Assembly (NCBI GenBank): GCA_965603295.1
Contig: CBFDCL010000001.1
Coordinates: 506 to 64,505 of the forward strand
Reading direction: 5' to 3'
Source of the DNA: an uncultured bacterium
GTDB taxonomy: Bacteria > BMS3Abin14
Length of the DNA: 64,000 nt
The translations under genes were made by a program, and so were the position numbers. The notes below the pieces were generated by a model. The model was not told where the DNA came from, did no database searches, and saw only the letters and a list, made by a program, of their open reading frames with translations. Below, piece by piece: positions 1 to 64,000 of this stretch. Within the stretch, counting starts at the first letter, position 1, and each line of letters opens with the position of its first letter.

Positions 1-24
1 GCTTACGCTTGCTCAGGGCAGAGA

Positions 25-180
25 AAAAATCCAAGATCCAAGAACCAAAATCCAAGATCCGGGGAAACCACGTTGAACGTTTAATGTTTAACGTAGCCCA
101 ATCCCGCAACTCTCAAACTCTCAAACATCAAACCTCAAACTTCAAACTTTCAAACTTTCAAATTCTCAAACTTTCAAACC
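25..180. repeat. composite heptamer-repeat element, type 2: (TCCAAGA)n - AACGTTTAACG - (CTCAAAC)n
   Basis: Core 45-125 recurs at 1343-1410 with about 90% identity. Confidence 0.7.
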
Positions 181-191
181 GTTCCAGCATC

Positions 192-701
192 CTAATCATC
201 GATCAATCCTGGCAGGTCCACAAGGAGAATCGTGCCCGTGGCAAGGTCCACATCCTTAATTGTACCGCTTGCGAAGGGGACCATGAAAGGTTTCCCGTCC
301 TCTCGGTCCCCCGAAAGGACAGGGGGCCCCCCTGTTTCGAGGATCCTGTCAACTCTCCCGATCCTGATACCGTTGTGGTCCAGCAGGATCAGGCCGACAA
401 GATCGTGGAGAAAGTACTCCCCTTCCCGGAGGGGAAGCAGATCCCCCAGAGGCAGACAAACGGCTACCCCCCGAAGGGTTTCGGCTTTGTCCATATCATC
501 GATGCCGTCCAGTTTCAAAAGAGGGGCGCCCTTGTGCATCCTCACACCGAGGACGCGGACCGGGTCCCCGGAGAGCTGTCCAAGGAAGACGCGGTTAGCG
601 CCAGTGAGTGTGGACAGGTGGTCCGTACAAAGTCGCAGCACGACTTCACCTCGGCGCCCGTGGGGACGGAGGATCTCGGCAATCATATAGAGGTCATCCA
701 T
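192..701 (-). CDS. rimM: 16S rRNA processing protein RimM
   Basis: 169-aa ORF with the RimM N-terminal motif (IAEILRPHGRRGEVVL) and PRC barrel; lies immediately downstream of rpsP in the classic ffh-rpsP-rimM arrangement. Confidence 0.8.
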   Translation of the reverse strand: MDDLYMIAEILRPHGRRGEVVLRLCTDHLSTLTGANRVFLGQLSGDPVRVLGVRMHKGAPLLKLDGIDDMDKAETLRGVAVCLPLGDLLPLREGEYFLHDLVGLILLDHNGIRIGRVDRILETGGPPVLSGDREDGKPFMVPFASGTIKDVDLATGTILLVDLPGLIDD

Positions 702-737
702 GGAAGAAAAAGCCGCATCGATGGCGGCCAGGGAGAA

Positions 738-6730: not shown

Positions 6731-6746
6731 TGCCGACGACATCAAT

Positions 6747-6827
6747 TTCAAAATTCAAATTTCATATTTCAAAAGGTGTACGCGAGTTTCATTTTTTATT
6801 TGAAATTTGAAATGTGAAATCTGAAAT
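6747..6827. repeat. imperfect 28-bp inverted repeat (TTTCAAA/TTTGAAA heptamer arms) in the hemA-hemC spacer
   Basis: Arm 1 is 6747-6774 and arm 2 is 6800-6827, 24/28 complementary; could form a long AU-rich hairpin between hemA stop and hemC RBS. Confidence 0.45.
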
Positions 6828-6846
6828 TATAATCAGGAGGAATTCA

Positions 6847-11012: not shown

Positions 11013-12409
11013 TCCCCCTCGATCCGAACCTTATGCAAGAGGTCATCGCCGCTCTTCTTTCCTCGGGAGGGGAGTTCGCGGACCTCTTTTTCCAGGATGT
11101 TACAGCCAGCCATCTGGAGGCCGAATCGGGAAGGGTGGAACGTGTTTCCACGGTGCGTGAGGCGGGAGCCGGACTCCGCCTTATCCGGGAGGGGGTCACG
11201 CATTTCGCCACGGCTGTGGACCTGACCCCGCGTCATTTACTTGACCTGGCTATGGACCTTGCTTCCGGGGCCGGAGCCACGGGAGACCGGCCCGGGATCA
11301 CCTTTCAACAGCAGGCCGGAGGATCCCTTCCTCCCGGGGAGGATCCCTCAGGGATATCCCTGGATGAGAAGAGCCGACTGGTGATGCGGGCCATCGAATC
11401 CCTCGAGAATTTTGACAGGAGACTCGTTCAGGTCAAGTCGGTTTACAGGGACTCCTCGGCCCTGGTCAGGATAGCCAATTCGGACGGTCTCCTGGGAGAG
11501 GATGTCAGAAGATATGGGGTCTTCCTGGTCCAGGGGGTGGCTTCGGACGGTGAACGCCTCCAGGTCGGTTATGAACCCGTGGGGGGTATCGGAGGTTATG
11601 GGGTATTCAGGCAGGTGAACCCAGAGGAGGTCGGGCTTACTGCCGCAAAACGTGCCCTGACGATGCTCGAGGCACCGGAGGCGCCTTCCGGAAAAATGAC
11701 CGTAATCCTTTCGTCCGAGGCCGGCGGAACGATGGTCCACGAAGCGGTGGGGCACGGTCTGGAGGCTGATCTTTCAGGTCAGGGGCTTTCGGTCTATACA
11801 GGAAAACTGGGGGAAAAAGTTGCCTCCTCCCTTATTACGGTTGTGGATGATCCAACCCTGGCCGGGAAACGGGGCTCATACAATATGGATGATGAGGGAA
11901 CCCCGGGATCGAAAACCGTCCTGGTGGAAAAAGGGGTCCTCGTGCGCTACATGAACGATCGGCTGAGTGCACTGCGTGACGGCAGTCCCCTGACGGGAAA
12001 CGGCCGCCGCCAGTCTTTCCGTTACTGGCCGATACCGAGGATGTCTAACACGATCATCGAACCGGGTGATCAGGATCCTGGAGAGATCCTGCGCAGTGTT
12101 GACCACGGGCTTTTCGTTCGGAAAATGGGGGGAGGTCAGGTGAACCCCGTGACAGGTGATTTTGTTTTCGAGGTCAGTGAGGGCAATTTGATCCGCGGGG
12201 GTGAGGTCGCAGAGGCGGTTCGCGGTGCTACCCTTGCCGGTAACGGCCCGGAAGTGCTAAAAAGTGTAGATATGCTTGGAAACGATCTTGGTTTCGGTAT
12301 CGGCACCTGTGGTAAGGAAGGACAGGGGGTGCCCGTAGGGGACGCGCAACCCACCCTGAGGATCCCGGACATGGTGGTGGGAGGCCGGGACGCTGGAGAG
12401 AACACCTGA
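11009..12409 (+). CDS. tldD: TldD/PmbA-family metalloprotease (TldD-like, HExxxH present)
   Basis: 466 aa with the TldD/PmbA fold and the HEAVGH motif. Confidence 0.7.
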   Translation: MIPLDPNLMQEVIAALLSSGGEFADLFFQDVTASHLEAESGRVERVSTVREAGAGLRLIREGVTHFATAVDLTPRHLLDLAMDLASGAGATGDRPGITFQQQAGGSLPPGEDPSGISLDEKSRLVMRAIESLENFDRRLVQVKSVYRDSSALVRIANSDGLLGEDVRRYGVFLVQGVASDGERLQVGYEPVGGIGGYGVFRQVNPEEVGLTAAKRALTMLEAPEAPSGKMTVILSSEAGGTMVHEAVGHGLEADLSGQGLSVYTGKLGEKVASSLITVVDDPTLAGKRGSYNMDDEGTPGSKTVLVEKGVLVRYMNDRLSALRDGSPLTGNGRRQSFRYWPIPRMSNTIIEPGDQDPGEILRSVDHGLFVRKMGGGQVNPVTGDFVFEVSEGNLIRGGEVAEAVRGATLAGNGPEVLKSVDMLGNDLGFGIGTCGKEGQGVPVGDAQPTLRIPDMVVGGRDAGENT

Positions 12410-16560: not shown

Positions 16561-16815
16561 GGCAATCTGCTGTGTTCTCGGTCGCGCGTGATCCTCGAAG
16601 TACCCGGCAATGTACGTCTCCGGTCCCACGCTCCCTCGGGCCTTGCATCTTACCCATTCTCCCGCGCCGATAAGGGTGTTCCTTTGAAATGTGGCCTTAT
16701 TAGCGCAGCCCTTTACAAATCCTCGACGTATGTCGCCAAAATCCTGAGAGAAAAGTCCTCGGAGATAAGGGTAGTTCGATCAAACTTATCACTTATACAT
16801 AGGACTTGGGACCCA
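16561..16815. repeat. mosaic intergenic element, copy A (modules W 16561-16608, X 16653-16710, Y 16753-16815)
   Basis: Y has nested inverted repeats (AAGTCCT..GATAAG..CTTATC..AGGACTT); X has GCGCCGATAAG..CTTATTAGCGC; W recurs at 33396-33443. Confidence 0.65.
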
Positions 16816-16892
16816 TTAGGAATCCCCGGTGTCAGAGCAGAAGGTCGGTGATTGGTCATTGGTGACTGGCGATTGGAAAGGGAGGGGGTAAG

Positions 16893-17570: not shown

Positions 17571-17576
17571 AAATAG

Positions 17577-17607
17577 TGCACAGGTGCACCAGTGCACTAG
17601 TGCACTG
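17577..17607. repeat. cluster of four GTGCAC palindromes (AGTGCAC heptamer tract)
   Basis: agtgcacaggtgcaccagtgcactagtgcactg; similar clusters at 25474-25508, 29020-29050, 61770-61795 and 61880-61910. Confidence 0.6.
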
Positions 17608-17655
17608 AATTCATAATTTTAAAATTTGAAATCTGAAATTTGGAATGGAGATTCC

Positions 17656-19219: not shown

Positions 19220-19921
19220 GTGTCCTCTTTCAGCGGTTTTCCGGACGGGGCGGTGAGGTTCCTTTCAGACCTGGCGATGAACAACAAAAAAGCCTGGTTC
19301 GAGGCCCACCGGAACGATTACGACAGGTTCATTGTTGATCCAGCCAAAGCTTTTACCGAAGCCATGGGGGAAAGGCTCACGGCCTATGCCCCCGGCATTG
19401 TCGCCGAACCGAGGGTCAACGGTTCGATCTTCCGCATTTACCGGGACGTGCGCTTCTCAAAGGACAAGCGGCCCTACAAGACCCACCTGGGTATTTTTAT
19501 GTGGGAAGGTGGGGGTCGGAAGATGGAGTGCCCGGGTTTTTACTTCCACCTCGAACCTCCCAACCTCCTGCTCGGTGGCGGGATCCACATTTTCTCGAAA
19601 ACCCTGCTCCATGAATACAGGAGATCCGTGGTCCATCCGAAACACGGCTCGGATTTGTCTGAGGCGGTCGTGTCCGTGTCGAAATGTCTCAACATAGGCG
19701 GCCGACACTACAAGAGAACACCCCGAGGGTACGATTCGGACCATCCTTTGTCGGACTTCCTGCTGTTTAACGGGCTTACGGTCTGGACCGAGGCGCCGAT
19801 ACCAGCCGCGCTGCACGGAGCGGAGATCATTGATCACTGTTTCGATGTGTTCAGGAAAATGCTGCCGATACACACATGGCTCCGCGGAATGGCAGGAAGA
19901 GCTCGCGGAGCCAGAATCTAG
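19220..19921 (+). CDS. DUF2461 (TIGR02453) family protein
   Basis: N-terminal FxxxxxxFLxxLxxNNxKxWF..R..Y signature of DUF2461. Confidence 0.6.
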   Translation: MSSFSGFPDGAVRFLSDLAMNNKKAWFEAHRNDYDRFIVDPAKAFTEAMGERLTAYAPGIVAEPRVNGSIFRIYRDVRFSKDKRPYKTHLGIFMWEGGGRKMECPGFYFHLEPPNLLLGGGIHIFSKTLLHEYRRSVVHPKHGSDLSEAVVSVSKCLNIGGRHYKRTPRGYDSDHPLSDFLLFNGLTVWTEAPIPAALHGAEIIDHCFDVFRKMLPIHTWLRGMAGRARGARI

Positions 19922-20151
19922 AATCTAGACTCCAGATACTAGACTCTGCTGATCTTCCCCCGACACCCCTGTACATCTGGTGCTTAACGCCCGATACGCC
20001 CACACATTGACATGCTGATACGTTTCAAAGGGAATGTACTCTCCCTGTTTTGGTTTACTTCTGTGTTTGGCATTCTGTATTCTGTATTCGTCATAGGAAC
20101 CAGGATTATTTTGAACCTTGGATTTGGATTCTTGAATAAGAGGATATACCC

Positions 20152-20946: not shown

Positions 20947-21100
20947 GCCAAACGGTGCGTTTATCGTTTATTGTTTAACGTTTAACGTGGTTTTCCTGGA
21001 CCTTGTGGTTCTTGAATTGATTTCAATCTTGAATTTTAAATTTTTATCTTTTCCAACCACTGTTCACTAATCACTGATCACCAATCACTTGGCTCCATTT

Positions 21101-23299
21101 CTACATCCTCCTGTTCTTCATGTATCCGCTTTTCATGGTTTTTTCCACGTACAGGCAGGCTTGACGGGAAAGGGCGATGAGCTTTTCAGGCCTGGGTTTT
21201 TCACCCTGACCGGATACCGCGGCTCCCAGAGCCAGATCATACCGTCCCCCGTGCTGTTCCCGGAAGTGCTCGATGAGGCGGTCGGCGTAGCCGTCCACCA
21301 GGGATGCATAGGTCAGGATGACAAACTCTCCCTGGGGCCGGCTCTGGATAAGATTGTCCTCCATTCTTCCATCATCCATGATGTGGAGGATGGTCTCCTC
21401 CATATCCCCCAGCGATTCGAATGAGTATGTGTCCTCAGAGGATGTCATGCCCGAGGCCGGGTTCACGTGCACGGTGAGGACTCCCACCGTTTTGCCCTCG
21501 GACAGGCGATTGGCCAACTCACCGGTGAACTCCTCGTCTCCGGGATGCCAGGCTGTGATTCCCCTCTGGGGACTGATGAGACCCTGGGTGGGCAGCGAGA
21601 ACCGGAAAGAGGTTTTCTCCCCGGGAGTGCTTGTGGCGGAAATGGTGCCTCCGTGCTGTTCCACCAACTCCTTCGTCAGGGAAAGGCCAAGCCCGGTTCC
21701 CTTGGATTCCGAATGTTCCTCGGCCGGTTCGTTGAGGATGCCCCTGTAGAAACGGTTGAAAACAAGGGATAGCTCCTCCTCTGAGATGCCTGGCCCGGTG
21801 TCGCTGACCTCGAAAACCGTATGCCCGTCCGAGGTGTGAAGGGCGATGTCGATGTGGACACCCGTTCCGCCGTACTTGATAGCGTTCCCGATGAGGTTAA
21901 CCAGGGCCTGTTCCACCCTGTCCCTGTCAGCGATGAGATTTGGGAGATCTTTTTCGGCGTGGAGCCTCACCACGGCTTTGCTGGCTTCGGCCTGAGGGTT
22001 GAGGAGCTTGACGGCGTTCTCCGCGATCTCGAGGGGGTTGAACGGTTCCTTGGTCAAGGCTAACTGTCCCGACTCGAGGCGGGCGAGGTCGAGGAAGTCG
22101 TTGATAAGCCGGTTGAGCCTCTTGCTCTCGTTGTGGATGATGAAGAGGTAGCGTTCGAGGGGTTCGGGTATGTCGTCTCTCCTGATCAGAAACTCCGAAA
22201 ACCCCTGAATCGAAGTGAGGGGCGTGCGAAGCTCATGGGATACGGTGGAAATGAGCTCCGTCTTGAGGTGATCGAGCTTGCGGATCTGAAGCCGGTCGAA
22301 AATCCCCTCCAGGAGTAGCCCGGAAAACTGCGTCAGGATGGCCTGGGAAACCTTCATCAGTTCCATGAACTCGGGGGAACCCTCCGGAACCGCCGAAAGG
22401 GCAATGCCGAAAAGGTTGTGCCGCGGGGGCAAAAGGCTCCTGAGGAGGCGAAGTCCGGAGCTGTTGAGGAGATCCCAGGCGAACCCCAGTTCCCGGAGGC
22501 GTTCGTTGTCCGGGTAAGGGGGGTGAAGTGATGCGGCAGCCAGGAACTGGTACACGGAGAAGCCGGAGGCGAAATCCATGACCGACATGTTGGTCCCCGT
22601 TTCCGGGTTAATGGTTCCTGCCCATGCCCGGTTGCTGCTCATCTCGCCTACGAGGATCATATGAGAGGATGATCCCAGAACGCTGTTCATCCCTCTGACC
22701 GTAGCCGGGATCAGGCCGGTCTCGATGTCCATGGATTTTCCATGGATTTCCTGGAGGGTGGAAAAGAGGGAGTTCGAGGAGATGCTTATGCGGTCGACCT
22801 CCTCCCACAGGTACAGGTTTTCCATCCCCATCCCAACCTGGAGGGCGAGGGATTTAAGGGTCCGGAGGTTTTCCTCGGTGAACCCCTCGTTCATCGTAGT
22901 ATCGGTGACGTTCATGACCCCGATCAGGCGCCCGCGGCTTTTCAGGGGAACGCTGATAAACGACCTGGTCCGGTATCGGTCCTGAAACTGAGCTGAAAAC
23001 CGGATATCCTGGTCCATATCGGGGACCAGGACGGCGTCACCGGTAGCGGCTACCCAGCCCGATACACCTTCTCCCACGGGGACTTTCACCCCTCCCATGT
23101 TTTCCGGGTAGCGACCGGCCCAGGCGGTCAGGGAAAGGTTCTGTCCCTGGGGGTCCAGGGAGAGGATGGAAACCCGCTCCGCGTCGAACAGCGCGAGGAC
23201 CCTGTTGCAGAAGGTGCGGAGGATCGTGACCTCATCAAGGTTGGAGTTAAGCAGTTCCTCCAGCTCCAGGAAAAGATCCTCCGTGATCTGTCGCGTCAT
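21101..23299 (-). CDS. sensor histidine kinase (GAF/PAS - HisKA - HATPase) with uncharacterised ~170-aa C-terminal domain
   Basis: GAF domain at the N-terminus, H-box (VSHELRTPLTSIQGF), N/G1/G2 boxes (NAIKYG, DTGPGI, GLGLSL), then an extra C-terminal region with no recognisable motif. Confidence 0.8.
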   Translation of the reverse strand: MTRQITEDLFLELEELLNSNLDEVTILRTFCNRVLALFDAERVSILSLDPQGQNLSLTAWAGRYPENMGGVKVPVGEGVSGWVAATGDAVLVPDMDQDIRFSAQFQDRYRTRSFISVPLKSRGRLIGVMNVTDTTMNEGFTEENLRTLKSLALQVGMGMENLYLWEEVDRISISSNSLFSTLQEIHGKSMDIETGLIPATVRGMNSVLGSSSHMILVGEMSSNRAWAGTINPETGTNMSVMDFASGFSVYQFLAAASLHPPYPDNERLRELGFAWDLLNSSGLRLLRSLLPPRHNLFGIALSAVPEGSPEFMELMKVSQAILTQFSGLLLEGIFDRLQIRKLDHLKTELISTVSHELRTPLTSIQGFSEFLIRRDDIPEPLERYLFIIHNESKRLNRLINDFLDLARLESGQLALTKEPFNPLEIAENAVKLLNPQAEASKAVVRLHAEKDLPNLIADRDRVEQALVNLIGNAIKYGGTGVHIDIALHTSDGHTVFEVSDTGPGISEEELSLVFNRFYRGILNEPAEEHSESKGTGLGLSLTKELVEQHGGTISATSTPGEKTSFRFSLPTQGLISPQRGITAWHPGDEEFTGELANRLSEGKTVGVLTVHVNPASGMTSSEDTYSFESLGDMEETILHIMDDGRMEDNLIQSRPQGEFVILTYASLVDGYADRLIEHFREQHGGRYDLALGAAVSGQGEKPRPEKLIALSRQACLYVEKTMKSGYMKNRRM

Positions 23300-23400: not shown

Positions 23401-23489
23401 AGAGAATTGAGGATTGAGAATTGAGAACTTAAACCAGTGATTGGTGATTCGTGATTGGAGGAAGGTTTGAGGTTTGATTTTTGAAGTTG
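23401..23489. repeat. composite heptamer element E-H-F: (GAGAATT)4-(GTGATTG)3-(GGTTTGA)3
   Basis: Same module order at 24335-24447, 37322-37402 and 61802-61863, at 54124-54200 as the reverse complement, and partially at 27521-27590 and 52074-52148. Confidence 0.75.
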
Positions 23490-23749
23490 CAGAAAATTCA
23501 CGTTGGATGTTTGACGTTGGACCTCTATTCTTCCCGCGCCCCACGCCCTGAGCTTGTCAAAGGGCGTCCCCTTCGCTAATCTCCCGACTGGGCTCTATGA
23601 CCTCAAACTTCAAACACCAAACCGTTCACTAATTATCAATGACCAATCACCAGTTTTTCTCGTTAAACATTGAACGTTAAACATTAAGCGTGTTTAATAT
23701 AAAATTCTTGCGCAAACATTTCCGCTACATCGGGGCAGGGGAGGATGGG

Positions 23750-24283: not shown

Positions 24284-24334
24284 TCATCGATCACTTCGAG
24301 TCCAAAGTCCAACGCCCAAAGCCCAAAGGGATAG

Positions 24335-24515
24335 AACAATTGAGGATTGAGGATTGAGAATTGAGAATTGAGAAAAAACAGTGATTAGTGATTCGTGATT
24401 GGTGATTGGAAAACGGTTTGAGGTTTGAAGTCTGAGGTTTGAAGTTTTACGTCAGAAGCCAGGATCCATAGGCCAGGAAGAAATTCACATTAAACATTAA
24501 ACAGTAAACGTTAAA
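24335..24515. repeat. composite heptamer element E-H-F followed by an (AAACGTT)n-like tract; direct repeat of 23401-23523 on the other side of hpt
   Basis: E 24335-24371, H 24378-24408, F 24413-24447, N' 24484-24515; preceded by (CCAAAG)n at 24299-24329. Confidence 0.75.
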
Positions 24516-24540
24516 CCTATATGCACCAGGGACTTTCTTT

Positions 24541-40947: not shown

Positions 40948-40996
40948 AGGTCAGGGTTCAGAGTCTAGAATCTAGAATCAAGAATCTTACTGCTGC

Positions 40997-45469: not shown

Positions 45470-45584
45470 AGAAGCCAGGAGCCAGGAGCCAGTGGCCAGT
45501 GGCCAGTGGGTTCTGAAATGGTGTAATCATAGCCGGAATTTTTGAACTTCTCCTGACTCTTGAATTCTGACTCCTGGCTCCTGC
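45470..45584. repeat. inverted arrays of (GCCAGGA)/(CCAGTGG) versus (CTCCTGG/CTCCTGA) heptamers in the tmk-mogA spacer
   Basis: gccaggagccaggagccagtggccagtggccagtgg at 45470-45510; ctcctgactcttgaattctgactcctggctcctg at 45550-45584; the word recurs at 34921-34940. Confidence 0.6.
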
Positions 45585-46589: not shown

Positions 46590-46690
46590 ACCATAAGAGG
46601 GCAAGGAGAGAGGAAAAGGTAGAAAGTAGAAGGTAGAAAGTAGAAGGTGGAAAGGGGAAGGTGGAAAGGGGGAGGCCGTGAGCTTGTCGA
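46590..46690. repeat. (GAAGGTRGAAAGKA)n purine-rich tandem array
   Basis: aaggtagaaagtagaaggtagaaagtagaaggtggaaaggggaaggtggaaaggggg. Confidence 0.55.
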
Positions 46691-51062: not shown

Positions 51063-52086
51063 CAGGTTCCCGGATTCCCTTCCGGGGTGTTCCCGTTTCC
51101 CCCGAATATTCTGCCTTCTGATCACGGTTATCTTTCTGGTTTCCGGGTGTTCCGGTTCGCGAAAGCCCGTTCGTGAGACCCGCTTCCTGATGGGGACCCT
51201 CGTCGATGTGATCGCCTACGGGGACCAGGAAACGGCCGCCGAGGCGGTGGGCCGGGCCTTCGAAAGGATGGCGGAGGTGGAAGAGGCATCTCATAGTAAG
51301 GGCTTGGGTTCCCTTCTTGGGGCCATCAGGGACGGAAAGGGTGCCCTTCTTACCGGTGATGCCGCTCTCGTCATGGAAACGGCCCTGTCCGTCGCTGTGG
51401 CCAGTTCGGGGGCTTTTGATCCCACTCTGGGGGAACTGGTGGAACTGTGGGGGATCGCCACCGGTCATCCGGAAGTGCCCGATGACGAGAAGATCAAAGA
51501 GGCCCTTTCCCGTTCCGGGTACCAAAGGATCCCGGAGACAGGGTGCTGTCCCGATGGGATGAAGGTGTGGCTGGACCTGGGCGGTGTGGCCAAAGGGTAC
51601 GCGGTGGATGAAGCGGTCAAAGTGCTGAAGGAGGCGGGGGTCCCCTCGGGGATCGTTAACGCGGGCGGGGATCTGAGGTCCTTCGGTCAAAAGCCGGGGA
51701 AAATTCCCTGGAAGATCGGGATCCAGAATCCCGATGACCCTCAGGATCTGGCGGGGGTCCTGGATGTTAACGAGGTCTCCGTCGCGACCTCGGGGGATTA
51801 TCAGCGATACTTTGAGGTGAGCGGTGTCCGGTATCACCATATCCTCGATTCGACCACCGGACATCCCGCACGGTCAGGGGTCCGCAGTGTGACAGTCCTC
51901 ACGGATGACTGCGCTCTTGCCGATGCCCTGGCCACAGCCGCTTTCGTGATGGGTCCCGAAAGGGGCCTGGGTCTGCTGGAGGCCTGGGAAGATGTGGAGG
52001 GGATCATCATTTCCCAGGACGGTACCTATCACCTGACGTTGGGCATAGGAACGAAGATCCCGTTTGAGAAGCGAATTGAGGATTGA
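51052..52086 (+). CDS. apbE: FAD:protein FMN transferase ApbE (lipoprotein)
   Basis: Lipobox (LVSGCSG); ApbE motifs (DLGGVAKGYAVD, GGD); the stop codon lies inside a GAGGATTGAG repeat. Confidence 0.8.
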   Translation: MMIDRFPDSLPGCSRFPRIFCLLITVIFLVSGCSGSRKPVRETRFLMGTLVDVIAYGDQETAAEAVGRAFERMAEVEEASHSKGLGSLLGAIRDGKGALLTGDAALVMETALSVAVASSGAFDPTLGELVELWGIATGHPEVPDDEKIKEALSRSGYQRIPETGCCPDGMKVWLDLGGVAKGYAVDEAVKVLKEAGVPSGIVNAGGDLRSFGQKPGKIPWKIGIQNPDDPQDLAGVLDVNEVSVATSGDYQRYFEVSGVRYHHILDSTTGHPARSGVRSVTVLTDDCALADALATAAFVMGPERGLGLLEAWEDVEGIIISQDGTYHLTLGIGTKIPFEKRIED

Positions 52087-52324
52087 GAATTGAGAGTTGA
52101 GGATTGAGAAAAAAGTTTGAAAGTTTGAGAGTTTGAGGTTTGAAGTTGTGAATTCAGGAGACAGGAGCCAGAATCCAGAAGGCAGCATTTCTTTGGCCTT
52201 TGGGCATTGGGCTTTGGGCTGTTCTTCCAATCACCAATCACTGGTCACAAATCACCGAAATTTTCTTGGATCTTGGATCTGTTTTGAAATTTGGAATTTG
52301 AAATTGCCTTTTGAGATTTGAGAT

Positions 52325-52717
52325 ATGAGGTCTGAAATAGGAACTCGATCCATTCGCCTGACCCGTCCCCGATGGGCGGACGGGGTCCTGCTGGTCCTCC
52401 TGATCGCCCTGACGTTCCTTCCCCCACGGTTGATCCCGGCCGGTCCCAAAGGCGACACCCTCGTGGTCAGGACGTCGGGGTCCGTTTTTGAGGTGGATCT
52501 TACCGATGAAGGGCCCCATCCCATCGATGGCCCGCTGGGAGAGGCTGTCCTCATGGTCCGGGACGGGAAGGCCTGGCTTCAGAACGCTCCCTGTCCGCTC
52601 AAGATCTGCGAGGGGATGGGCCCCATTGACGAGTCCGGCGAGATCATCCTGTGCCTGCCGAACCGGATTCATATTCAGGTAGCAGGGAGCGGTGGTGTTG
52701 ATGCGATCTCCCGGTAG
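52325..52717 (+). CDS. NusG domain II-containing membrane protein
   Basis: N-terminal TM helix plus small beta domain; family call from memory only. Confidence 0.45.
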   Translation: MRSEIGTRSIRLTRPRWADGVLLVLLIALTFLPPRLIPAGPKGDTLVVRTSGSVFEVDLTDEGPHPIDGPLGEAVLMVRDGKAWLQNAPCPLKICEGMGPIDESGEIILCLPNRIHIQVAGSGGVDAISR

Positions 52718-53222
52718 GATCGCCGCCCTGGCGCTGATGGTGGCGGGTGCTTTCGCTCTGGCTTCCCTCGAGAGGGCTCTGCCAAACCCCTTTCCCATGG
52801 TGCGTCTGGGCCTGGGAAACATCATGACCCTCGTGGCTTTCACCACGATGGGGGTCTCGGCCGGGGTGTGGGTGGCCGTCGGCAGAGTAAGTTTGGTGGC
52901 TCTGCTCTGGGGGGGGCTCATCGGGCCGACGGCGGTCCTGTCGGCCTCTGGGGCGGCCGCAAGCCTCCTTGTCATGATCCCACTTCTGCTCGCTGGGCGC
53001 TTCAGCCTCTACGGTGTCAGCCTGGGAGGCGCCTACGCTCATGTCCTCGGGCAGCTGCTTGTCGCTTCCCTGCTCTACGTCAGGTCCCCCGCGCTCCTGG
53101 TCCTCCTCCCGGTCATGGGGGCCGCGGCCATCGTGACAGGAGTCGTCAATGCCTGGGCGGCGGGGAAACTGATTGCCTATCTTCCCGGCAATTTCAGTTC
53201 AGAAAGGCCGTCCAAGGTCTAA
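52692..53222 (+). CDS. Gx transporter family protein (heptaprenyl-diphosphate-synthase component I-like)
   Basis: Small 5-6 TM protein; typical partner of NusG_II proteins. Confidence 0.5.
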   Translation: MVLMRSPGRIAALALMVAGAFALASLERALPNPFPMVRLGLGNIMTLVAFTTMGVSAGVWVAVGRVSLVALLWGGLIGPTAVLSASGAAASLLVMIPLLLAGRFSLYGVSLGGAYAHVLGQLLVASLLYVRSPALLVLLPVMGAAAIVTGVVNAWAAGKLIAYLPGNFSSERPSKV

Positions 53223-53328
53223 CGTTTAACGTCCAACGGAAAAGCGGTGATCGGTAATTAGTGATTGGTGATTGGATGGTAACCCAAGGGAAAATACGTT
53301 AAACGTTTAACGTTGAACGTGGAAAGCT

Positions 53329-54123: not shown

Positions 54124-54200
54124 AACTTCAAACCTAAAACATCCAACCAATCACCAATCACGGTTTTTATTCTCAATTCTCAATCCTCAATTCTCAATTT
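54124..54200. repeat. composite heptamer element in reverse-complement orientation (F'-H'-E')
   Basis: caacttcaaacctaaaac / ccaatcaccaatcacgg / ttctcaattctcaatcctcaattctcaa; overlaps the pgeF stop. Confidence 0.7.
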
Positions 54201-56565: not shown

Positions 56566-56732
56566 CTTCCCACCCTAAGTGACCCGTACGGGAAAATCAA
56601 GGGGGCTTGTCATTTTCACCGTGGCTTGAAGTGGCGGGAATCCCGCCACTTCAAGCCCTCAAACTTCAAACAGAGTTCTCCACGTTTAACGTTGAACGTT
56701 GAACGTGATTCCAACTTCAAACTCTCAAACTC

Positions 56733-57650
56733 TCAAACTTGGAATTTCTCCCCCGTGAGCAGTTCGAACGCCTCCACGTATTTCCCCCTCGTTTTACCCA
56801 CAATATCGTCCGGGAGAGTGGGGGCTGGCGGCGTTTTGTTCCAGTTCAGATCCTCCAGGTAGTCCCGGACAAACTGTTTGTCGAAGCTTTCGGGGCTTGT
56901 TCCCACCTTGTACGTGGAAGCCGGCCAGAACCGGGAGGAGTCGGGTGTCAGCACTTCGTCGATCAGGAGCAATCCCCCGTCGATGGCCCCGAATTCGAAC
57001 TTGGTGTCGGAGATGATGATGCCTCGCTGCCTGGCGAAAGCAGCGGCTTTTTCATAGACGGCGATAGTGATCTCCTTAAGCTTTATGAGGGTTTGGGCCC
57101 CAACTGTTTCCGCGGCTTGGGCGAAGGAGATGTTCTCATCATGTCCCGTGTGGGCTTTTCTGGCAGGGGTGAAGATGGTTTCTTCCAGTTTCTGTGCCTG
57201 TTGCAGGCCGTCGGGGAGGGGGATGCCGCACACTTCCCCCGATTCCCGGTAATCGTTCCATCCGGTTCCCGCCAGGTACCCCCTTGCCACACATTCCACC
57301 GGGAAGGGATCCGTCTTCCGGACCAGCATGCTTCTACCCTCCAGCAGCGGGGCGTGTTTCTGAAGGGAAGGAGGGTAATCCTCCACCTTGGCGGAAACAA
57401 GATGGTTTTTCACGATGTCCTCGGTGAAACGGAACCAGAAAAGTGACATCTGTGTCAGGATCTTCCCTTTGTCAGGAATCCCGTTGGGCATAATCACGTC
57501 GAAGGCGGAGATCCGGTCCGTGGCTACGATCAGGAGGTGCTCGCCCAGGTCGTAAACATCGCGAACCTTGCCCCGTCGAAAAAGGAGAACCCCCGGAAGA
57601 TCGGTTTTCACTACCGTTTTTCTGTTCTCAGTACTGTTTTCCCGTTTCAT
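56733..57650 (-). CDS. purC: phosphoribosylaminoimidazole-succinocarboxamide synthase
   Basis: Long-form PurC (RGKVRDVYD, ATDRISAFD); start MKRENST at 57650 with AGGAGAG RBS. Confidence 0.85.
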   Translation of the reverse strand: MKRENSTENRKTVVKTDLPGVLLFRRGKVRDVYDLGEHLLIVATDRISAFDVIMPNGIPDKGKILTQMSLFWFRFTEDIVKNHLVSAKVEDYPPSLQKHAPLLEGRSMLVRKTDPFPVECVARGYLAGTGWNDYRESGEVCGIPLPDGLQQAQKLEETIFTPARKAHTGHDENISFAQAAETVGAQTLIKLKEITIAVYEKAAAFARQRGIIISDTKFEFGAIDGGLLLIDEVLTPDSSRFWPASTYKVGTSPESFDKQFVRDYLEDLNWNKTPPAPTLPDDIVGKTRGKYVEAFELLTGEKFQV

Positions 57651-58026
57651 TGCCCTCTCCTGGTTTTGCGAACGGGTCACCCCGGCATCTGGCGGAGAAA
57701 ATGAAAAAATACAGCAAGTGCAGAAGGTTTGCAACGAGGCGACAGTCGGAGGGGCTTGTAAGCAGTGCACGGTGTCTGGTATCTAGAAGAGAAGTTGGTT
57801 GGAGTTTGAGAGTTTGAGAGTTTGAAAGTTGCAGGTCAGTGCAGAGTGTAAAGTGCATCCCCCTTCGCCAAGGCTACGGGGGACAGGGGGTGCAGAGGGG
57901 AAAGTCCGACGCGGAGACACGATGACGCGGGGACGCGGAGGAAGACCGAGATTTGAAGTTTGATGTTTGAAGTTGGAAACACGTTCAACGTTCAACGTGT
58001 TCTTCTTGAATCTTGAATCTTGAATC

Positions 58027-59442
58027 TTGAATCTTGAACCCGATCGAAAGGGGCTCGGATTGAGCCAGGACGCGAAAAAGATCGAGAAATACAGGGGCAT
58101 CATCAAGTTCCTTGAGCACGCTGTCAGAAACATCGCTATTTACCCCTCTGAACACCCATCGGTTAAGGGGGTGTCAAAGCGCGCTTTTGATCTCCTCGGC
58201 CAGATTTTGGAGGAAGCTCCCGAGGTCCGGGTCCGGGTTGTCAACGGGACCCTTTTTCTGGACGAATATTCCTTCTCCGAGCCGACACCCTATTCCCGGA
58301 ACTTTATGAAGGTCCTTGATAGCTTCGGGATCGACGACCTGTTTTTCCGGAAAGGTGTTTCCGAGGATGAGTTCCTCATGCTTTCCGAGGTTCTGAATGC
58401 CAGGGAACGAAGCAGGGAAATGTTCCAGGAGATGTGCGAAAGGGAAGGGATACGGAATATCGGTCTGGGGAGGGAAGGACCCCGGCAGGATCATGGGGAC
58501 GGGGCCGAAGGGGATGTCCAGACCCTCGAGGATGCGGTGGGGAGAGTTGAGCAGTTTTTCAATGAAGTGGGCGGAGGCGGGTTCCCCTCCCTGCATGATG
58601 TGGAAAGTCTCGTTGAAGGCTTGATGAAAATTTCGGGAACCCGTGAGGCCTTTTCCCCTCATCTTTTTGGTGAAAAAGGGTACGACTCTTATACATTTGG
58701 CCACTGTGTCAACGTGGGAATCCTTTCCCTTCTCCTCGCTCGCCAGAAAGGGCTTAGCGAACAGGATGTCAGGAAGGCCGCCCTCGCCGGGTTAATGCAC
58801 GACATCGGAAAGGCGAGGGTGCCCCCTGGGATCGTTCAAAAGCCGGGCTTTCTGACCCCCCGGGAAAATGAGGAGATGAAATCCCACGCTGACTATTCGG
58901 GAGAAGTTGTGCGGCGGATGGGCGGTGCCGAGGATGTGGCAGGGGCTGTGGAGAACCATCACAGGTTTCACGACGGGGGCGGCTACCCGGCTCGGGAAGA
59001 TGGGGAAAATGTCCCGGCCCTTGCCGGTCTGGTATCGGTTGCGGATTTTTTCGACGCTGCCACGGCGGCTCGTCCCTATCGGGTGGCCTTGAACCCCGTC
59101 GAGGTTATGGATTATCTGAGGAAAGAACGAGGCCGCAGGTTCGACCCTGTTCACGTGGATGCCCTTTTCGCCCTGCTTGGACCGTTTCCTCCGGGATCCG
59201 TCATCCGGCTCTCGAGCAACGAGATTGGCGTTGTTGTCACGGGCGGGGAGCATTCGGGAGCCCTTTCCGTGAGGATGATCATCGACCGGGATGGTGATCC
59301 TTTCGGCAGTAGGCGCATCCTGGACCTGAATGGACCTGATGCGGCGGGGAGGGTTGTGGCTGGAGTTGTCGATCCGGCCCTTTACGGTCTGGAAATATCG
59401 GTTGCCCTTTCCTTCGGTTCTTACGCGAACCTGTCGCGATAA
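58027..59442 (+). CDS. cytoplasmic HD-GYP domain phosphodiesterase
   Basis: HDIGK and HHRFHDGGGYP motifs; the real start is probably an internal TTG/GTG. Confidence 0.7.
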   Translation: MNLEPDRKGLGLSQDAKKIEKYRGIIKFLEHAVRNIAIYPSEHPSVKGVSKRAFDLLGQILEEAPEVRVRVVNGTLFLDEYSFSEPTPYSRNFMKVLDSFGIDDLFFRKGVSEDEFLMLSEVLNARERSREMFQEMCEREGIRNIGLGREGPRQDHGDGAEGDVQTLEDAVGRVEQFFNEVGGGGFPSLHDVESLVEGLMKISGTREAFSPHLFGEKGYDSYTFGHCVNVGILSLLLARQKGLSEQDVRKAALAGLMHDIGKARVPPGIVQKPGFLTPRENEEMKSHADYSGEVVRRMGGAEDVAGAVENHHRFHDGGGYPAREDGENVPALAGLVSVADFFDAATAARPYRVALNPVEVMDYLRKERGRRFDPVHVDALFALLGPFPPGSVIRLSSNEIGVVVTGGEHSGALSVRMIIDRDGDPFGSRRILDLNGPDAAGRVVAGVVDPALYGLEISVALSFGSYANLSR

Positions 59443-61757: not shown

Positions 61758-61958
61758 TCTCCGGAGTGCAGGATATAGAGTGCAGTGTGCAGAGGGTAAG
61801 AACAATTGAGAATTGAGGATTGAGAATCACGGTTTGAAGTTTGAGGTTTTGAGTTTGAAGTTGCCGATTTGCTTTGTCTCTGCACTTTACACCCTGCACT
61901 CTGCACTCAATTCTCTGGACTCTGAACCCTGAACTCTGAACTCTGAACCGGCCTTTTT

Positions 61959-62969
61959 ATGAATCTTCGCGAATACCTGATAAGGCGTCTATGGCTGATC
62001 ATCCCCACGTTCCTGGGGATCACCCTTATTACCTTCCTGGTGATCCAGCTGGCGCCCGGGAGCCCGGCCGCCATGAAGCTCCGCCTGGGTGAGCAGGGTC
62101 ATATGGGAGACGAGGTAACAAGGGAGATCGTCCAGCAGACCAAAGCCCTTTACGGCCTCGACAAGCCCTTGTGGGTCCGTTACGGGATCTGGCTGCGGAG
62201 GGTGGTAACCTTCGATTTCGGGAATTCCTACAAGGATCACCGGCTGGTCCTGACGAAAATCATGGAGCGTCTTCCCGTAACCCTTGAACTTAACCTGATC
62301 TCGATCTTCCTCGTTTACCTCATCTCCATCCCCGTGGGGGTGTTCTCCGCGGTCAAACAGGGGAGTGTAGCCGACCGGGCCACGACGGTGGTCCTGTTCC
62401 TCCTTTATTCACTGCCCAACTTCTGGGTGGCAACCCTTCTGATCATGTTTCTGGGAGGGGGGGATTTCCTCGACTGGTTCCCGGTTTACGGCATCTCCTC
62501 CCCCGGGATGGAGGGCGCGTCCTTTTTCCCCCGCCTCGGGGATCACCTCTGGCACCTGGTCCTGCCGATTTTCTGCCTCACCTATGGAGGGCTGGCCGCC
62601 CTGTCCCGGTATCAGCGGGCGGGGATGCTCGAGGTTATCCGCCAGGATTACATTCGAACCGCGCGCGCCAAAGGGCTTCCGGAAAAGCTGGTGATCTTCA
62701 AGCATGCCTTTCGAAACTCCATCATTCCCATTGTCACCCTGTTGGGATATCTGCTGCCCGGGATGTTCGGAGGCAGCGTGATTATCGAAAGTATCTTTTC
62801 CATCCCCGGGATGGGGCAGCTCGGTTTTGAATCGGTCCTTTCCAGGGATTACCCGGTAGTCCTCGCGATCGCAACCATCTCGGCGATCCTGACCCTGCTG
62901 GGGCTCCTTGTTTCGGACCTGCTCTATGTCTGGGTGGACCCCCGGATCACATACGAAGGGGAACCATGA
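61959..62969 (+). CDS. ABC transporter permease (OppB/DppB-like)
   Basis: EAA-loop permease. Confidence 0.8.
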   Translation: MNLREYLIRRLWLIIPTFLGITLITFLVIQLAPGSPAAMKLRLGEQGHMGDEVTREIVQQTKALYGLDKPLWVRYGIWLRRVVTFDFGNSYKDHRLVLTKIMERLPVTLELNLISIFLVYLISIPVGVFSAVKQGSVADRATTVVLFLLYSLPNFWVATLLIMFLGGGDFLDWFPVYGISSPGMEGASFFPRLGDHLWHLVLPIFCLTYGGLAALSRYQRAGMLEVIRQDYIRTARAKGLPEKLVIFKHAFRNSIIPIVTLLGYLLPGMFGGSVIIESIFSIPGMGQLGFESVLSRDYPVVLAIATISAILTLLGLLVSDLLYVWVDPRITYEGEP

Positions 62970-63949
62970 TCCCACGGAACCGTAAACAGAGTTACACCAG
63001 GCTTATCTGGAAACAGTTCCGGCGGGATCCGGCTGCCCTTGCGGGCATGTTTTTTGTCCTTGTCCTGTTTGCTCTGGCCATCCTGGCCCCATTCCTTGCG
63101 GGCAGCCGGCCTATCGCTGCCGTCGTGGACAGTGATCTGGTTTTTCCCGCCCTGTCGAAGAAGGCACGACTGGTCTGGGATCAATCCGCCGAAAGTGATC
63201 GGGGATGGTCCCTCCGGCCCCTTGTCCCGCACGGGCCCACCGATATCGACCTGTCGGCAAACCTGATGCCGCCGGACCGAGATCATCTTCTTGGCACGGA
63301 CGATCGTGGACGGGACATCCTGGCCAGGATGATCCACGGGTCCCGGGTTTCCCTTTCGGTGGGGTTCGTGGCTGTGTCCATTTACACGGTCATCGGGATC
63401 TTTCTCGGGGCCCTGGCGGGATTCTATGGGGGGCGGGTGGACATGGTCATCAGCCGGATCATCGAAGAGATGATGTGTTTCCCTACATTTTTCCTTATCC
63501 TGGCCCTCCTGGCCTTTCTGCCGAGGAATATCTTCATGGTCATGGCTGTTATCGGTTTTACGGGTTGGACGGGTGTGGCCCGCCTGGTGCGTGGGGAGTT
63601 CCTCAAGCAGCGCAAGCTGGATTACGTCACGGCGGGGAAAGCTATCGGGGCTTCCAACCTGAGGATCATCTTTTTTCACATCCTGCCAAATTCGCTGGCC
63701 CCGGTCCTCGTTTCAGCCTCCTTCGGGGTGGCCGGGGCTATCCTGACGGAATCGTCCCTGAGTTTTCTTGGATTCGGCGTTCCCCCGCCGACGCCCTCCT
63801 GGGGAGATATCCTCTCCCAGTCCAAACAGTATATCGACTTTGCCTGGTGGTTGACCGTCTTCCCCGGGGCGGCCATCTTCCTGACGGTCACGGCGTATAA
63901 CCTTGTGGGCGAAGGGTTGAGGGACGCCGTGGATCCAAGACTGAAGTGA
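62966..63949 (+). CDS. ABC transporter permease (OppC/DppC-like)
   Basis: EAA-loop permease; 4-bp overlap with the upstream permease. Confidence 0.8.
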   Translation: MIPRNRKQSYTRLIWKQFRRDPAALAGMFFVLVLFALAILAPFLAGSRPIAAVVDSDLVFPALSKKARLVWDQSAESDRGWSLRPLVPHGPTDIDLSANLMPPDRDHLLGTDDRGRDILARMIHGSRVSLSVGFVAVSIYTVIGIFLGALAGFYGGRVDMVISRIIEEMMCFPTFFLILALLAFLPRNIFMVMAVIGFTGWTGVARLVRGEFLKQRKLDYVTAGKAIGASNLRIIFFHILPNSLAPVLVSASFGVAGAILTESSLSFLGFGVPPPTPSWGDILSQSKQYIDFAWWLTVFPGAAIFLTVTAYNLVGEGLRDAVDPRLK

Positions 63950-64000
63950 GAATAGCCCAAAGGCCAAAGACCTAAAGATACAGTCCGGGATTTATGCTGA

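Follow-up and report, generated by a model that had tools for sequence, protein, structure and literature searches.

Dispersed tandem arrays of short units have been described from several bacterial groups. The short tandemly repeated repetitive (STRR) sequences of filamentous cyanobacteria are built from 7-nt units, in several families per genome, that lie scattered through intergenic DNA as arrays of few copies, the classical units being CCCCAGT (STRR1), TTGGTCA (STRR2) and CAACAGT (STRR3). Some form hairpins between genes (PMC2670836), their function being unknown, and TTTTGAA-type arrays sit near start codons in Nostoc (preprint 10.1101/2022.06.06.494920). According to passages in two papers that draw on Mrazek et al. 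2007 (PMC4679880, PMC4692102), heptanucleotides are the most over-represented class of long simple sequence repeats (SSRs) in many bacterial genomes. Xanthomonas carries ~186 GGGAATC arrays per ~5-Mb genome, typically of four units and some as inverted pairs, whose position is kept between species and whose length is not (PMC4692102); TAACTGA arrays occur in marine Beggiatoaceae, some Cyanobacteria and Bacteroidetes (PMC4679880); and Geobacter metallireducens holds heptamer arrays among its multicopy 'global regulator binding sites', interpreted as IHF/HU sites (PMC2700814). Here we analyze a 64,000-nt stretch of an uncultured bacterium (contig CBFDCL010000001.1 of assembly GCA_965603295.1, positions 506 to 64,505, forward strand; hereafter the window), whose intergenic spacers are packed with tandem hepta- and octanucleotide arrays.

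These arrays share the form of STRR sequences, with 7-nt units in several families and few-copy arrays dispersed in intergenic DNA, and their TTTGAAA members resemble the start-proximal arrays of Nostoc. They part from STRR in the host, a non-photosynthetic, uncultured and anaerobic one, and in a vocabulary that centers on NNTTGAR and comes in recurring cassettes. A first interpretation made from the letters alone (the sequence-only reading) had likened the arrays to STRR and proposed a comparison with STRR1-3. The likeness holds for form, but no three-copy array with at most two mismatches to those units is present in the window (GTGATTG, in its rotation TTGGTGA, stands one mismatch per unit from STRR2), and heptamers are no hallmark restricted to heterocystous cyanobacteria, having been published from elsewhere. 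The arrays are STRR in form and not by strict membership, the canonical units being absent and the host non-cyanobacterial, and they clearly belong to the heptanucleotide long SSRs already published from bacteria.

With that class, whose units measure 5-11 nt, they share over-represented intergenic heptamers in arrays that exceed compositional expectation, and slippage, seen here in the array at 25509-25573. Like the Xanthomonas arrays they have a modal length of ~4 units, include inverted pairs and vary in length and sequence among close relatives while keeping their location; unlike them, which consist essentially of one G-rich, quadruplex-prone unit, the window has at least 38 units at ~1.1 arrays/kb, with no quadruplex-forming potential apparent by inspection. 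If the window is representative, it would be ~30-fold denser in arrays than Xanthomonas. TAACTGA repeats likewise form 2-6-copy heptamer arrays in spacers, with a patchy phylogeny and proposed RNA-level roles, but are a single unit found mostly just 5′ of starts, in place of a Shine-Dalgarno sequence, whereas the window, from which TAACTGA arrays are absent, has many units that follow their clearest rule at 3′ ends. The G. metallireducens consensus sequences TCTCCGTS (three copies) and MTYCTGA (five copies) match window arrays at 32318, 33461 and 45550; the sites occur in pairs on opposite strands, in one species and not in its sister, yet number tens per 4-Mb genome, and in the window such units are a minor part of the heptamer population. 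The phase-variable contingency SSRs of host-adapted pathogens also change copy number by slippage but are hypervariable and belong to particular surface genes, in whose coding regions or promoters they lie, whereas the arrays described here are everywhere and mostly invariant. CRISPR (clustered regularly interspaced short palindromic repeat) loci, with 24-48-nt repeats and unique spacers of similar size, are unlike head-to-tail units of 7-8 nt. The case adds an unusually dense, multi-unit example, from a new uncultured lineage, to a known repeat class and does not define an element of a new type. What is new is quantitative, namely a TTGA-centered unit network, recurring cassettes, a replicated sense-strand rule at stop codons, and array-rich next to array-poor sister lineages; what the arrays do, we infer.

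Results and Discussion

Intergenic spacers are packed with period-7 arrays

Tandem Repeats Finder (TRF) returned 110 rows for the window, 72 with period 7, 11 with period 8 and 12 with period 14, against means of 1.2 (maximum 4) for period 7 and 1.7 for period 8 in 30 dinucleotide-preserving shuffles. Periods 7 and 8 are the enriched ones, with 5, 6 and 9-12 at background, and arrays have between 2.1 and 9.7 copies, most often 3-4. Arrays were placed relative to genes on a deliberately generous model of longest open reading frames (ORFs), in which five wrong-strand picks were fixed via Pfam and which covers 88.5% of the window, together with the gene calls attached to two other-strain contigs (L128 and L130, see below); start scoring by Shine-Dalgarno sequences over-trimmed genes and was dropped. 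On the longest-ORF model 73% of array bases fall within the 11.5% of DNA outside ORFs, arrays occupying 20% of non-ORF DNA vs. 1.0% of ORF DNA, and 27 of the 34 spacers of at least 50 nt hold one or more. Nearly all of those that overlap ORFs are at most a few tens of bases away from one end of the ORF, in a false 5′ extension or at the stop codon. Exact arrays of at least two copies recur between loci, AATTGAG at nine and GTGATTG and GTTTGAA at four each. These counts bear out the sequence-only reading in its description of spacers filled with tandem heptamers whose units recur at many loci; all 14 units that it listed were located, but two of them, AGTGCAC and CTCCGTG, are truly the octamers TAGTGCAC and TCTCCGTG. 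As an observation, the heptamer arrays are solid and confirmed.

The units are related to one another

Canonicalized by rotation and strand, the heptamers reduce to 38 distinct units, among which 32 pairs lie one substitution apart (null mean 12.9, maximum 23); the largest component connected by single substitutions takes in 26 of the 38 units and 50 arrays (null mean 5.7, maximum 16). The units are related by common descent and are not independent. A TTGA/TCAA core is found in 34 of 80 arrays, where 400 permutations of letters within units give 7.5 (maximum 16); by the same permutations TTG/CAA and TGA/TCA stand twofold over expectation, ATG/CAT occurs 3 times vs. 19.7 expected, and all TA-containing trimers are depleted 4- to 19-fold. 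Most families fit NN-TTGA-R (AATTGAG, GGTTGAG, GTTTGAG, GTTTGAA, ATTTGAA, TCTTGAA, CGTTGAA and the octamer AGTTTGAG), and the commonest units (AATTGAG, GTGATTG, GGTTTGA, GTTGAGR, TTTGAAA and GAGTTTGA) have one strand devoid of C. A second group embeds 6-bp palindromes (AACGTT, TCTAGA, GTGCAC, GGATCC, TGGCCA, AGATCT). Since no avoidance of such palindromes (GTGCAC, AACGTT, TCTAGA, GGATCC and others) is seen outside the arrays in the window, they bear no restriction-modification signature, and the earlier suggestion of a link to ApaLI restriction or methylation at GTGCAC is rejected.

Composite cassettes recur within and beyond the window

Arrays are further combined into composite cassettes. 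The first consists of a GGG..A-rich leader, an array of (RATTGAG)3-5 (A), an optional array of (GTGATTG)2-4 (B), an array of (GTTTGAR)3-5 (C) and AGTTG, and nine copies can be aligned, on the + strand at 23385, 24320, 27515, 37305, 52060 and 61790 and on the − strand at 1475, 39495 and 54210. The second runs (ATCCAAG)n, GGGGAAACCAC, GTTGAACGTTTAACGT, AGCCCAAYCCCRCAACT, (TCAAAC..)n; its copies at 29-183 and 1333-1470 are 86-90% identical, non-repeat linkers included, and partial copies lie at four further sites. Linkers held in common are beyond the reach of independent slippage, so cassettes have been copied between spacers. The sequence-only reading had posed dissemination against local slippage: dissemination stands, given the linker-sharing cassettes and the unit network, while the either/or falls, strain indels being whole units. 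Dispersal and slippage both act.

A scan of metagenomes for the A-then-B junction returned 28 contigs, 19 of which (GC 0.50-0.58, ~80 kb) do not overlap the window; 7 of the 19 come from metagenome Ga0114922, where the window's species also occurs, as it does in the ENA samples ERZ25073476 and ERZ25073472. These 19 independent contigs carry 1.5 period-7 arrays/kb and many units in common with the window. Because each was picked for one cassette the figure is biased upward, and subtraction brings the estimate near 1/kb. The same units at the same density are found on ~80 kb of DNA of this lineage outside the window, the opposite of what the sequence-only reading had named as its refutation.

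Arrays are oriented relative to transcription at gene 3′ ends

An orientation bias relative to transcription, which the sequence-only reading had put forward as a check, is present at 3′ ends. For each gene 3′ end we took the nearest C/G-skewed array no more than 100 nt away and asked which of its strands is C-poor and TGA-bearing. It is sense in 18 cases and antisense in 2 in the window (p = 4e-4), and in 21 and 3, respectively, in the ~80 kb of independent lineage contigs (p = 3e-4); for arrays that overlap a stop codon or lie at most 15 nt from it the ratio is 12:0. At 5′ ends it is 10:2 in the window but 9:8 in the independent contigs, and no claim is made. Within the 100-nt zones array bases have a sense-strand GC skew of +0.44 and non-array bases one of just +0.04, so the skew is a property of the arrays, and transcription-coupled mutation bias is ruled out as its source.

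The stop codon itself lies inside an array in at least seven genes, those on the + strand ending at 25425, 37343 and 52086 and those on the − strand at 27629, 29072, 52238 and 54187; arrays define the C-termini of these genes and create false 5′ ORF extensions. As 7 is coprime to 3, three copies of a TGA-bearing heptamer put stops in all three frames, and because stop codons have no C, the C-poor and stop-bearing traits are largely confounded. At the loci from other phyla considered below (at least 120), period-7 arrays by 3′ ends are likewise richer in G than in C on their sense strand in a ratio of 126:63, and still 39:16 for units with symmetric stop-codon content.

Four phage-like contigs (GC 0.53-0.59) carry (CTCAATT)4-5: L156 1707-8206, L141 2913-5609, L145 2374-6801 and L170 969-2002 (IMG/VR 3300026159_000618, 3300025871_000023, 3300021256_000414 and 3300026161_000635, respectively). 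There the array lies in the sense strand between co-directional genes and runs right up to the ATG ('ctcaattATGaaa'), where no Shine-Dalgarno sequence can be seen; such a layout suggests that arrays can serve as translation leaders.

Array map of the window

The arrays discussed above and their neighbors are, with TRF copy numbers:

29-179: ATCCAAG ×4.6, AACTCTCA ×9.4 (period 8) and TCAAACA ×3.9, one copy of the second cassette.
1213-1515: ATCTCAG ×2.9, AACTTCA ×3.4 and TTCTCAA ×5.0, directly 3′ of ffh (− strand); an A-C cassette in gene-sense orientation plus the other copy of the 29-179 cassette.
6747-6828: inverted pair (TTCAAAA)×4 and (ATTTGAA)×4.4 in the hemA-hemC spacer.
17574-17646, + strand: TAGTGCAC ×4.1 (period 8), then TTTGAAA ×4.1, which merges into the next gene's ribosome-binding site.
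19913-20089: AGAATCT ×5.0 over a stop codon, and ATTCTGT ×2.6.
20958-21089: CGTTTAA ×4.4 and CACTGAT/CAATCAC ×4.6 in a convergent spacer.
23402-23690: GAGAATT ×3.7, GTGATTG ×3.1, GGTTTGA ×3.7 and ACGTTGG-like units, a unique center, TCAAAC and CAATCAC units, and ACRTTAA 5′ of hpt, in a mirror layout.
24302-24516, + strand: CCAAAGC ×3.9, AATTGAG ×5.3, GTGATTG ×4.1, GGTTTGA ×4.7 and ACATTAA ×4.3, the fullest cassette.
25414-25573: inverted pair (GTTGAGR)×4.4 and (CTCAACY)×9 in the convergent EamA/hcp spacer.
27348-27639: GGCGACGG ×3.2, a 38-nt tandem ×2.2, AGTTCAGAGTGCAA ×1.9, TTGAGAA ×2.7 (cassette copy) and GGAACCA ×4.1, in the spacer 5′ of hcp.
29061-29084, − strand: AACCTCA ×3.4 over the stop codon of a − strand gene, for which the sense is GGTTTGA.
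29903-29949: AAGATCC ×3.4 and AACTTCA ×2.7.
31573-31784: CAAAGCC ×3.7, CAGAGTC ×2.7 and ACGTTAA ×4.9.
32318-32343, + strand: octamer TCTCCGTG ×3.2.
33461-33495, + strand: octamer TCTCCGTG ×4.4.
34859-34943, + strand: GCAGAAT ×2.1 and GCTCCTG ×3.1.
35470-35501, + strand: TGTTGAG ×4.6, 26 nt past a stop codon.
37324-37410, + strand: cassette of AATTGAG ×3.6 (holding the stop of gene 35811-37343), GGTGACT ×3.3 and GTTTGA units.
37746-37775, − strand: octamer CAAACTCT ×3.8 at the stop codon of a − strand gene.
38928-38947, + strand: TTGAAAT ×2.9, 14 nt 5′ of a start codon.
39329-39518: GGATCCA ×4.0, CAAACTG ×2.7 with AACTCTC ×3.6 (cassette, sense to a − strand gene), and CGTTGGA ×4.1.
40960-40987: AGAATCT ×4.0.
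45473-45583: AGCCAGG ×2.9, GCCAGTG ×3.1 and CTCCTGA ×4.9, in what is probably a non-coding 5′ ORF extension.
46603-46671, + strand: purine-rich GTAGAAA ×5.1 and AAGGGGA ×3.9.
52073-52329: the densest spacer, with GAATTGA ×5.4 (giving a stop codon), AAGTTTG ×5.3, CTTTGGG ×4.3, CCAATCA ×4.3 (giving the stop of a − strand gene), TCTTGGA ×2.4, TTTGAAA ×3.3 and TTTGAGA ×2.9.
53209-53320, + strand: CGTCCAA ×4.3, GGTGATT ×4.3 and ACGTTAA ×3.6, 5′ of a + strand gene.
54146-54199, − strand: ACCAATC ×2.3 and ATTCTCA ×4.4, a cassette in sense to a − strand gene whose stop it holds.
56682-56739: ACGTTGA ×3.6 and octamer AACTCTCA ×3.5.
57802-58038: GAGTTTGA ×3.6, GACGCGGA ×4.1, TTTGAAG ×3.9, ACGTTCA ×2.6 and TCTTGAA ×5.0 (perfect).
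61776-61948: GAGTGCA units, AATTGAG ×3.4, GTTTGAA ×4.4 and CTCTGCA/CTCTGAA ×9.7, the outer arrays pairing with the cassette in the loop.

Three of these loci fold far better than shuffled sequence as inverted pairs, those in the convergent EamA/hcp spacer (25412-25561, z = −5.1), in the hemA-hemC spacer (6742-6832, z = −3.6) and around the cassette at 61772-61921 (z = −2.8). Shuffled sequence folds as well as the direct cassettes do (z = −0.07 and +0.22), the mean z of array-rich spacers is −1.0 (range −4.0 to +1.5), and a general hairpin or terminator role for the arrays is rejected, as just some spacers beat shuffles. Consensus matches to intrinsic terminators in the window are at chance level (24 vs. 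23.5 and 26 vs. 26.4), with almost none at gene ends, and Rfam 15 gives no match in the window at gathering score.

Array length is largely stable among strains, array load varies among relatives

Two other strains, represented by the contigs L128 and L130, overlap the window; one stretch in common measures 14.4 kb (99.7% identity), the other 18.1 kb (99.6%). The sole indels among the strains fall in the longest array of the window, 25509-25573 (nine heptamers, or 4.6 fourteen-mers), where L130 is 14 nt shorter and L128 28 nt longer. About 25 shorter arrays are the same in the three strains at 99.6-99.7% identity, copy number differing in 1 of ~27 arrays, which adjoin genes of all kinds, and arrays show no excess of substitutions over ORFs (2 in 516 nt vs. 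30 in 12,608 nt). Such whole-unit indels, confined to the longest array, are ordinary length-dependent replication slippage and not contingency-locus hypervariability.

Beyond the strain level we took the identity of the orthologue of a histidine kinase to that of the window as yardstick and counted period-7 arrays per kb at each locus:

L252: kinase identity 60%, 0.12 arrays/kb.
L121 (GCA_020352595.1): kinase identity 74%, 0.14 arrays/kb.
L125: kinase identity 75%, 0.27 arrays/kb.
L251: kinase identity 70%, 0.46 arrays/kb.
L122: kinase identity 62%, 0.54 arrays/kb.
Window: kinase identity 100%, 1.12 arrays/kb.
L250: kinase identity 72%, 1.53 arrays/kb.

Array load spans about ten-fold among relatives (0.12-1.53 per kb) and their units mostly differ. 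L250, the densest, uses units largely other than the window's (GAATGTA, TTGGACA, ACCGATC, GGACACGG). Its locus (1-22199, ENA ERZ23486227 scaffold_1888) has 69% coding density over 22 kb, spacers of up to 650 nt, 34 period-7 and 16 period-8 arrays, and an rve-family integrase fragment at its edge. In L125 the spacer between hcp and the EamA gene holds (GATTGAG), (GTGCACWG), (CTCTGAA) and (GATTGAG), where the orthologous spacer of the window holds (GTTGAGR), a degenerate GTGCAC stretch and (CTCAACY), the GATTGAG of L125 corresponding to the GTTGAGR of the window; related arrays in an orthologous spacer indicate that arrays are old there, their units drifting and re-homogenizing.

Octamer arrays of TCTCCGYG recur in relatives whose heptamers are different, at 794-823 in L122 and at 12226-12257 and 13030-13063 in L250. 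In the window those at 32318-32343 and 33461-33495 bracket an EamA transporter gene; the TCTCCGTG pair lies on the same strand 1.1 kb apart, with a third array (57908-57940) on the other strand and far off, and the two arrays of L250, on opposite strands, flank 800 nt that are free of genes.

Similar arrays in other phyla are largely convergent

Heptamer arrays turned up in our scans in many phyla and in phages. A genome scan for (RATTGAG)3 found at least 120 stretches in at least ten phyla, among the listed matches Cyanobacteria, Acidobacteriota, Bacteroidota, Chloroflexota, Planctomycetota and Desulfobacterota, at loci with 0.1-2.5 period-7 arrays/kb and many other units, several of which carry the motif as an inverted pair at gene ends. 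In viral contigs AATTGAG forms 61 stretches vs. 16 and 14 for composition-matched control heptamers, which are also far above chance. As the controls too exceed chance and the companion units are not the window's, horizontal spread was rejected as the source of the (AATTGAG)n arrays shared across phyla; the sharing is largely convergent, with AATTGAG favored only ~4-fold. Adjacency of A and B arrays in unrelated genomes (GC 33-74%), considered as a shared element, is explained by in-phase mutation of GATTGAG to GATTGGT. Unit mutation within one array can be followed in unrelated high-GC genomes (L230 11585-11875 and L232 4429-4719, with GC 0.73; and L236 1142-1432), where (GATTGAG)n passes gradually, its phase kept, into (GATTGGT)n, after which comes an inverted (CTCAATC)n arm, the hairpin pairs adjoining gene ends.

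A proposed self-renewing satellite of intergenic DNA

We read the STRR-type hepta- and octanucleotide arrays as a self-renewing intergenic satellite, a mostly sequence-independent 'punctuation' that is tolerated or co-opted at gene ends, and would put the probability of this reading at roughly 0.55. Four parts of such a cycle are shown by the results above: array length changes by whole-unit replication slippage, as between the strains; point mutation diversifies the units, and variants are amplified into the connected family centered on NNTTGAR; multi-array cassettes, with their non-repeat linkers, have been copied to many spacers; and close relatives differ ~ten-fold in load, with largely different units. 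Selection would filter the survivors, which have no ATG and little TA, and where arrays touch gene ends it would keep the C-poor, TGA-bearing strand in sense, three or more copies closing all frames. Between convergent genes some arrays may then have been recruited as hairpins, while others may provide three-frame stops or A/U-rich leaders by ribosome-binding sites. The arrays would not be dozens of specific operator sites: the many units and their fast replacement argue against dozens of dedicated sequence-specific regulators, and a role in duplex DNA alone is at odds with the strand bias.

Several points weigh against the satellite reading. It leaves the preference for 7 nt over 6 or 9 unaccounted for; a polymerase footprint, credited to Mrazek et al. 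2007 in passages of two later papers (PMC4679880, PMC4692102), is put forward there as a proposal only. The orientation bias could equally mean an RNA-level function instead of a tolerance filter, and the phage unit, in opposite orientation and abutting the ATG, argues that orientation rules are system-specific. The TCTCCGYG octamers, conserved across the clade and found in G. metallireducens, look more like a genuine binding site. Direct cassettes are unstructured, which limits a hairpin role to a minority of arrays. As to how cassettes might be copied, inspection showed neither a terminal inverted repeat (TIR) nor a target-site duplication (TSD) at their ends, and the window has no transposase. 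The sample is 64 kb plus ~80 kb of the lineage, and its gene models are crude.

Arrays in 5′ leaders and 3′ trailers could instead be single-stranded platforms in RNA, each unit taking up one protein that covers ~7 nt, for instance a cold-shock-domain protein or ribosomal protein S1, so as to keep the RNA unstructured and tune translation or stability. This would account for the strand bias relative to transcription, for the G-over-C excess in other phyla that persists with symmetric stop content, for TTTGAAA-type arrays that merge into ribosome-binding sites and for the phage (CTCAATT)4-5 that ends at ATG. There is also precedent in CspB of Bacillus subtilis, stated to bind heptamer repeats so that each unit takes up one protein, and in the S1, Csp or CsrA binding proposed for TAACTGA arrays (PMC4679880), and deletion of TTTTGAA-type arrays is reported to alter reporter expression in Nostoc (10.1101/2022.06.06.494920). 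Yet orientation at 5′ ends is unbiased in the independent contigs, no csp gene is present in the window, and at least 38 units with a vocabulary mostly different in L250, at 72% kinase identity, would make binding nearly sequence-independent; we consider this explanation unlikely.

Slightly less probable is that the arrays are operators, sites for oligomeric double-stranded-DNA-binding regulators or nucleoid proteins, whether of the IHF/HU kind or of the ToxT/H-NS type that binds at the TTTTGAT heptads of the cholera toxin promoter. The usual 3-5 copies match published cases, the TCTCCGYG and MTYCTGA arrays correspond to the 'global regulator' classes 2 and 3, respectively (PMC2700814), the octamer family is conserved in L122 and L250, and arrays are AT-rich relative to the genome. 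A duplex binder, however, should ignore the sense strand, contrary to the 18:2 and 21:3 at 3′ ends; 38 unit types would call for many regulators, units turn over fast among relatives, and arrays are often at or on stop codons and not at promoters. A regulator or nucleoid protein is most credible for the TCTCCGYG octamers, which agree with the class 2 sites of G. metallireducens and recur in L122 and L250.

Polar insulation by way of Rho is doubtful. Here C-free sense RNA would be refractory to Rho and C-rich, G-free antisense RNA an ideal Rho utilization (rut) site, so that sense transcripts pass while antisense and convergent read-through are terminated. The commonest units do lack C on the strand that is sense near 3′ ends, intrinsic terminators are at chance level, and in the convergent spacers 52073-52260 and 25414-25573 each gene meets its own C-free arrays first and then its partner's in C-rich orientation. 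But CCAAAGC arrays are C-rich in sense right past stops (24302, 63985), many units are unskewed (ACGTTAA, AGAATCT, TAGTGCAC), the phage arrays have their C-rich strand in sense, and by our own calculation ~40% of random low-GC 7-mers lack C or G. Rho moreover prefers C residues spaced ~11-13 nt apart, not 7.

Equally doubtful are mobile cassettes in which the heptamers are mere internal structure, non-autonomous elements akin to miniature inverted-repeat transposable elements (MITEs) or repetitive extragenic palindromic (REP) sequences and moved in trans by a transposase or an enzyme of the REP-associated tyrosine transposase (RAYT) type. Non-repeat linkers are common to copies at 86-90% identity, at least nine copies of one cassette lie in 64 kb and favor gene 3′ ends, a GC-rich REP-like palindrome, distinct from the arrays, lies among them, and L250 ends in the integrase fragment. 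Against this, neither TIR nor TSD is seen by inspection at cassette ends, cassette composition is modular and variable, with B optional and order not fixed, the window has no transposase, and orthologous spacers, as in L125, hold related arrays and no clean empty site. Last and least, assembly or sequencing artefact is refuted and has next to no chance of being right, the arrays being matched at 99.6-99.8% identity by four independent assemblies from different samples and pipelines (L128 and L130, ENA; L239 and L244, JGI).

A further reading, tentative and with the odds well against it, is that heptad arrays form a transcription-direction-aware punctuation code across bacterial phyla and phages, with the C-poor strand sense 3′ of genes, read by a universal single-strand binder. 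The reader would have a ~7-nt footprint or a polar C/G preference, cold-shock-domain proteins, S1 and Rho being candidates. If so, punctuation arrays would set 3′-end formation, block antisense transcription or organize leaders, the orientation rule would be of high interest as a general RNA-level mechanism, and the clade would be a natural experiment for tracing the factor behind it, with array-rich (window, L250) and array-poor (GCA_020352595.1, L252) members.

The papers cited here call the function of STRR and heptanucleotide arrays unknown or proposed, and the present lineage is among the densest cases, with ~1 array/kb and one fifth of its non-coding DNA in arrays. Small complete relatives (2.16 and 2.78 Mb) and almost array-free sisters make it feasible to correlate load with gene content (mismatch repair, polymerases, rho, csp, IHF/HU). 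Any functional model is constrained by the TTGA core with its avoidance of ATG and TA, by the single-mutation network and by the sense-strand orientation at stops, a rule replicated in the independent contigs and, more weakly, across phyla. In practice the arrays affect gene calling, through stops and false 5′ extensions inside them, and metagenome assembly.

Host lineage and gene content

Pfam matches in the window comprise SRP54, RnfA/E, a poly-ferredoxin, a cytochrome c assembly protein, hemA-C-D-B, YceG, EamA transporters and a TatD/radical-SAM fusion, and further genes, among them hcp (Prismane), FecR, hpt and one for an HD-GYP protein, are identified from their synteny with annotated relatives; the gene content that the sequence-only reading had described, and with it a non-cyanobacterial genome, is thereby upheld. 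The yardstick kinase, a GAF sensor histidine kinase (21101-23299), was matched exactly by no database record and has homologues at 60-77% identity in unclassified metagenome-assembled genomes (MAGs) only, two of the relatives that bear it being complete genomes of 2.16 and 2.78 Mb (GCA_020352595.1 and GCA_020350725.1). Among named sequences, that of 'bacterium BMS3Abin14' comes closest to the Ffh of the window (65% identity), followed by Candidatus Deferrimicrobiaceae and 'Deltaproteobacteria bacterium GWC2_65_14' at ~58-59%. BMS3Abin14 is in use as a phylum-level label (PMC11382960). Judged from these relatives and from anaerobic gene content, the host is certainly not a cyanobacterium; it is an uncultured anaerobe, plausibly in or near the candidate phylum BMS3Abin14.

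The kinase gene adjoins hpt in the window, L125, L250 and L251, and in L121 and L122 (10001-12199; GCA_020352595.1 and GCA_020350725.1) it is part of a V-type ATPase operon, flanked by the genes for subunits I and c.

Other intergenic repeats

The GC-rich REP-like palindrome (CCGCCTTCGC...GCGAAGGCGG type) is interleaved with arrays at ~1147-1185, ~1243-1275, 23560-23590, 57845-57880 and 27395-27477, once, 5′ of hcp, as the 38-nt tandem ×2.2; in the relative L125 (6140-6233 and 9138-9333) it has GTCCAACGTCAAACG on either side. Two further dispersed intergenic repeats are not made of heptamers: one of 87 nt (16731-16817 and 28307-28393, 85% identity) and one of 44 nt (16565-16608 and 33400-33443, 91% identity).

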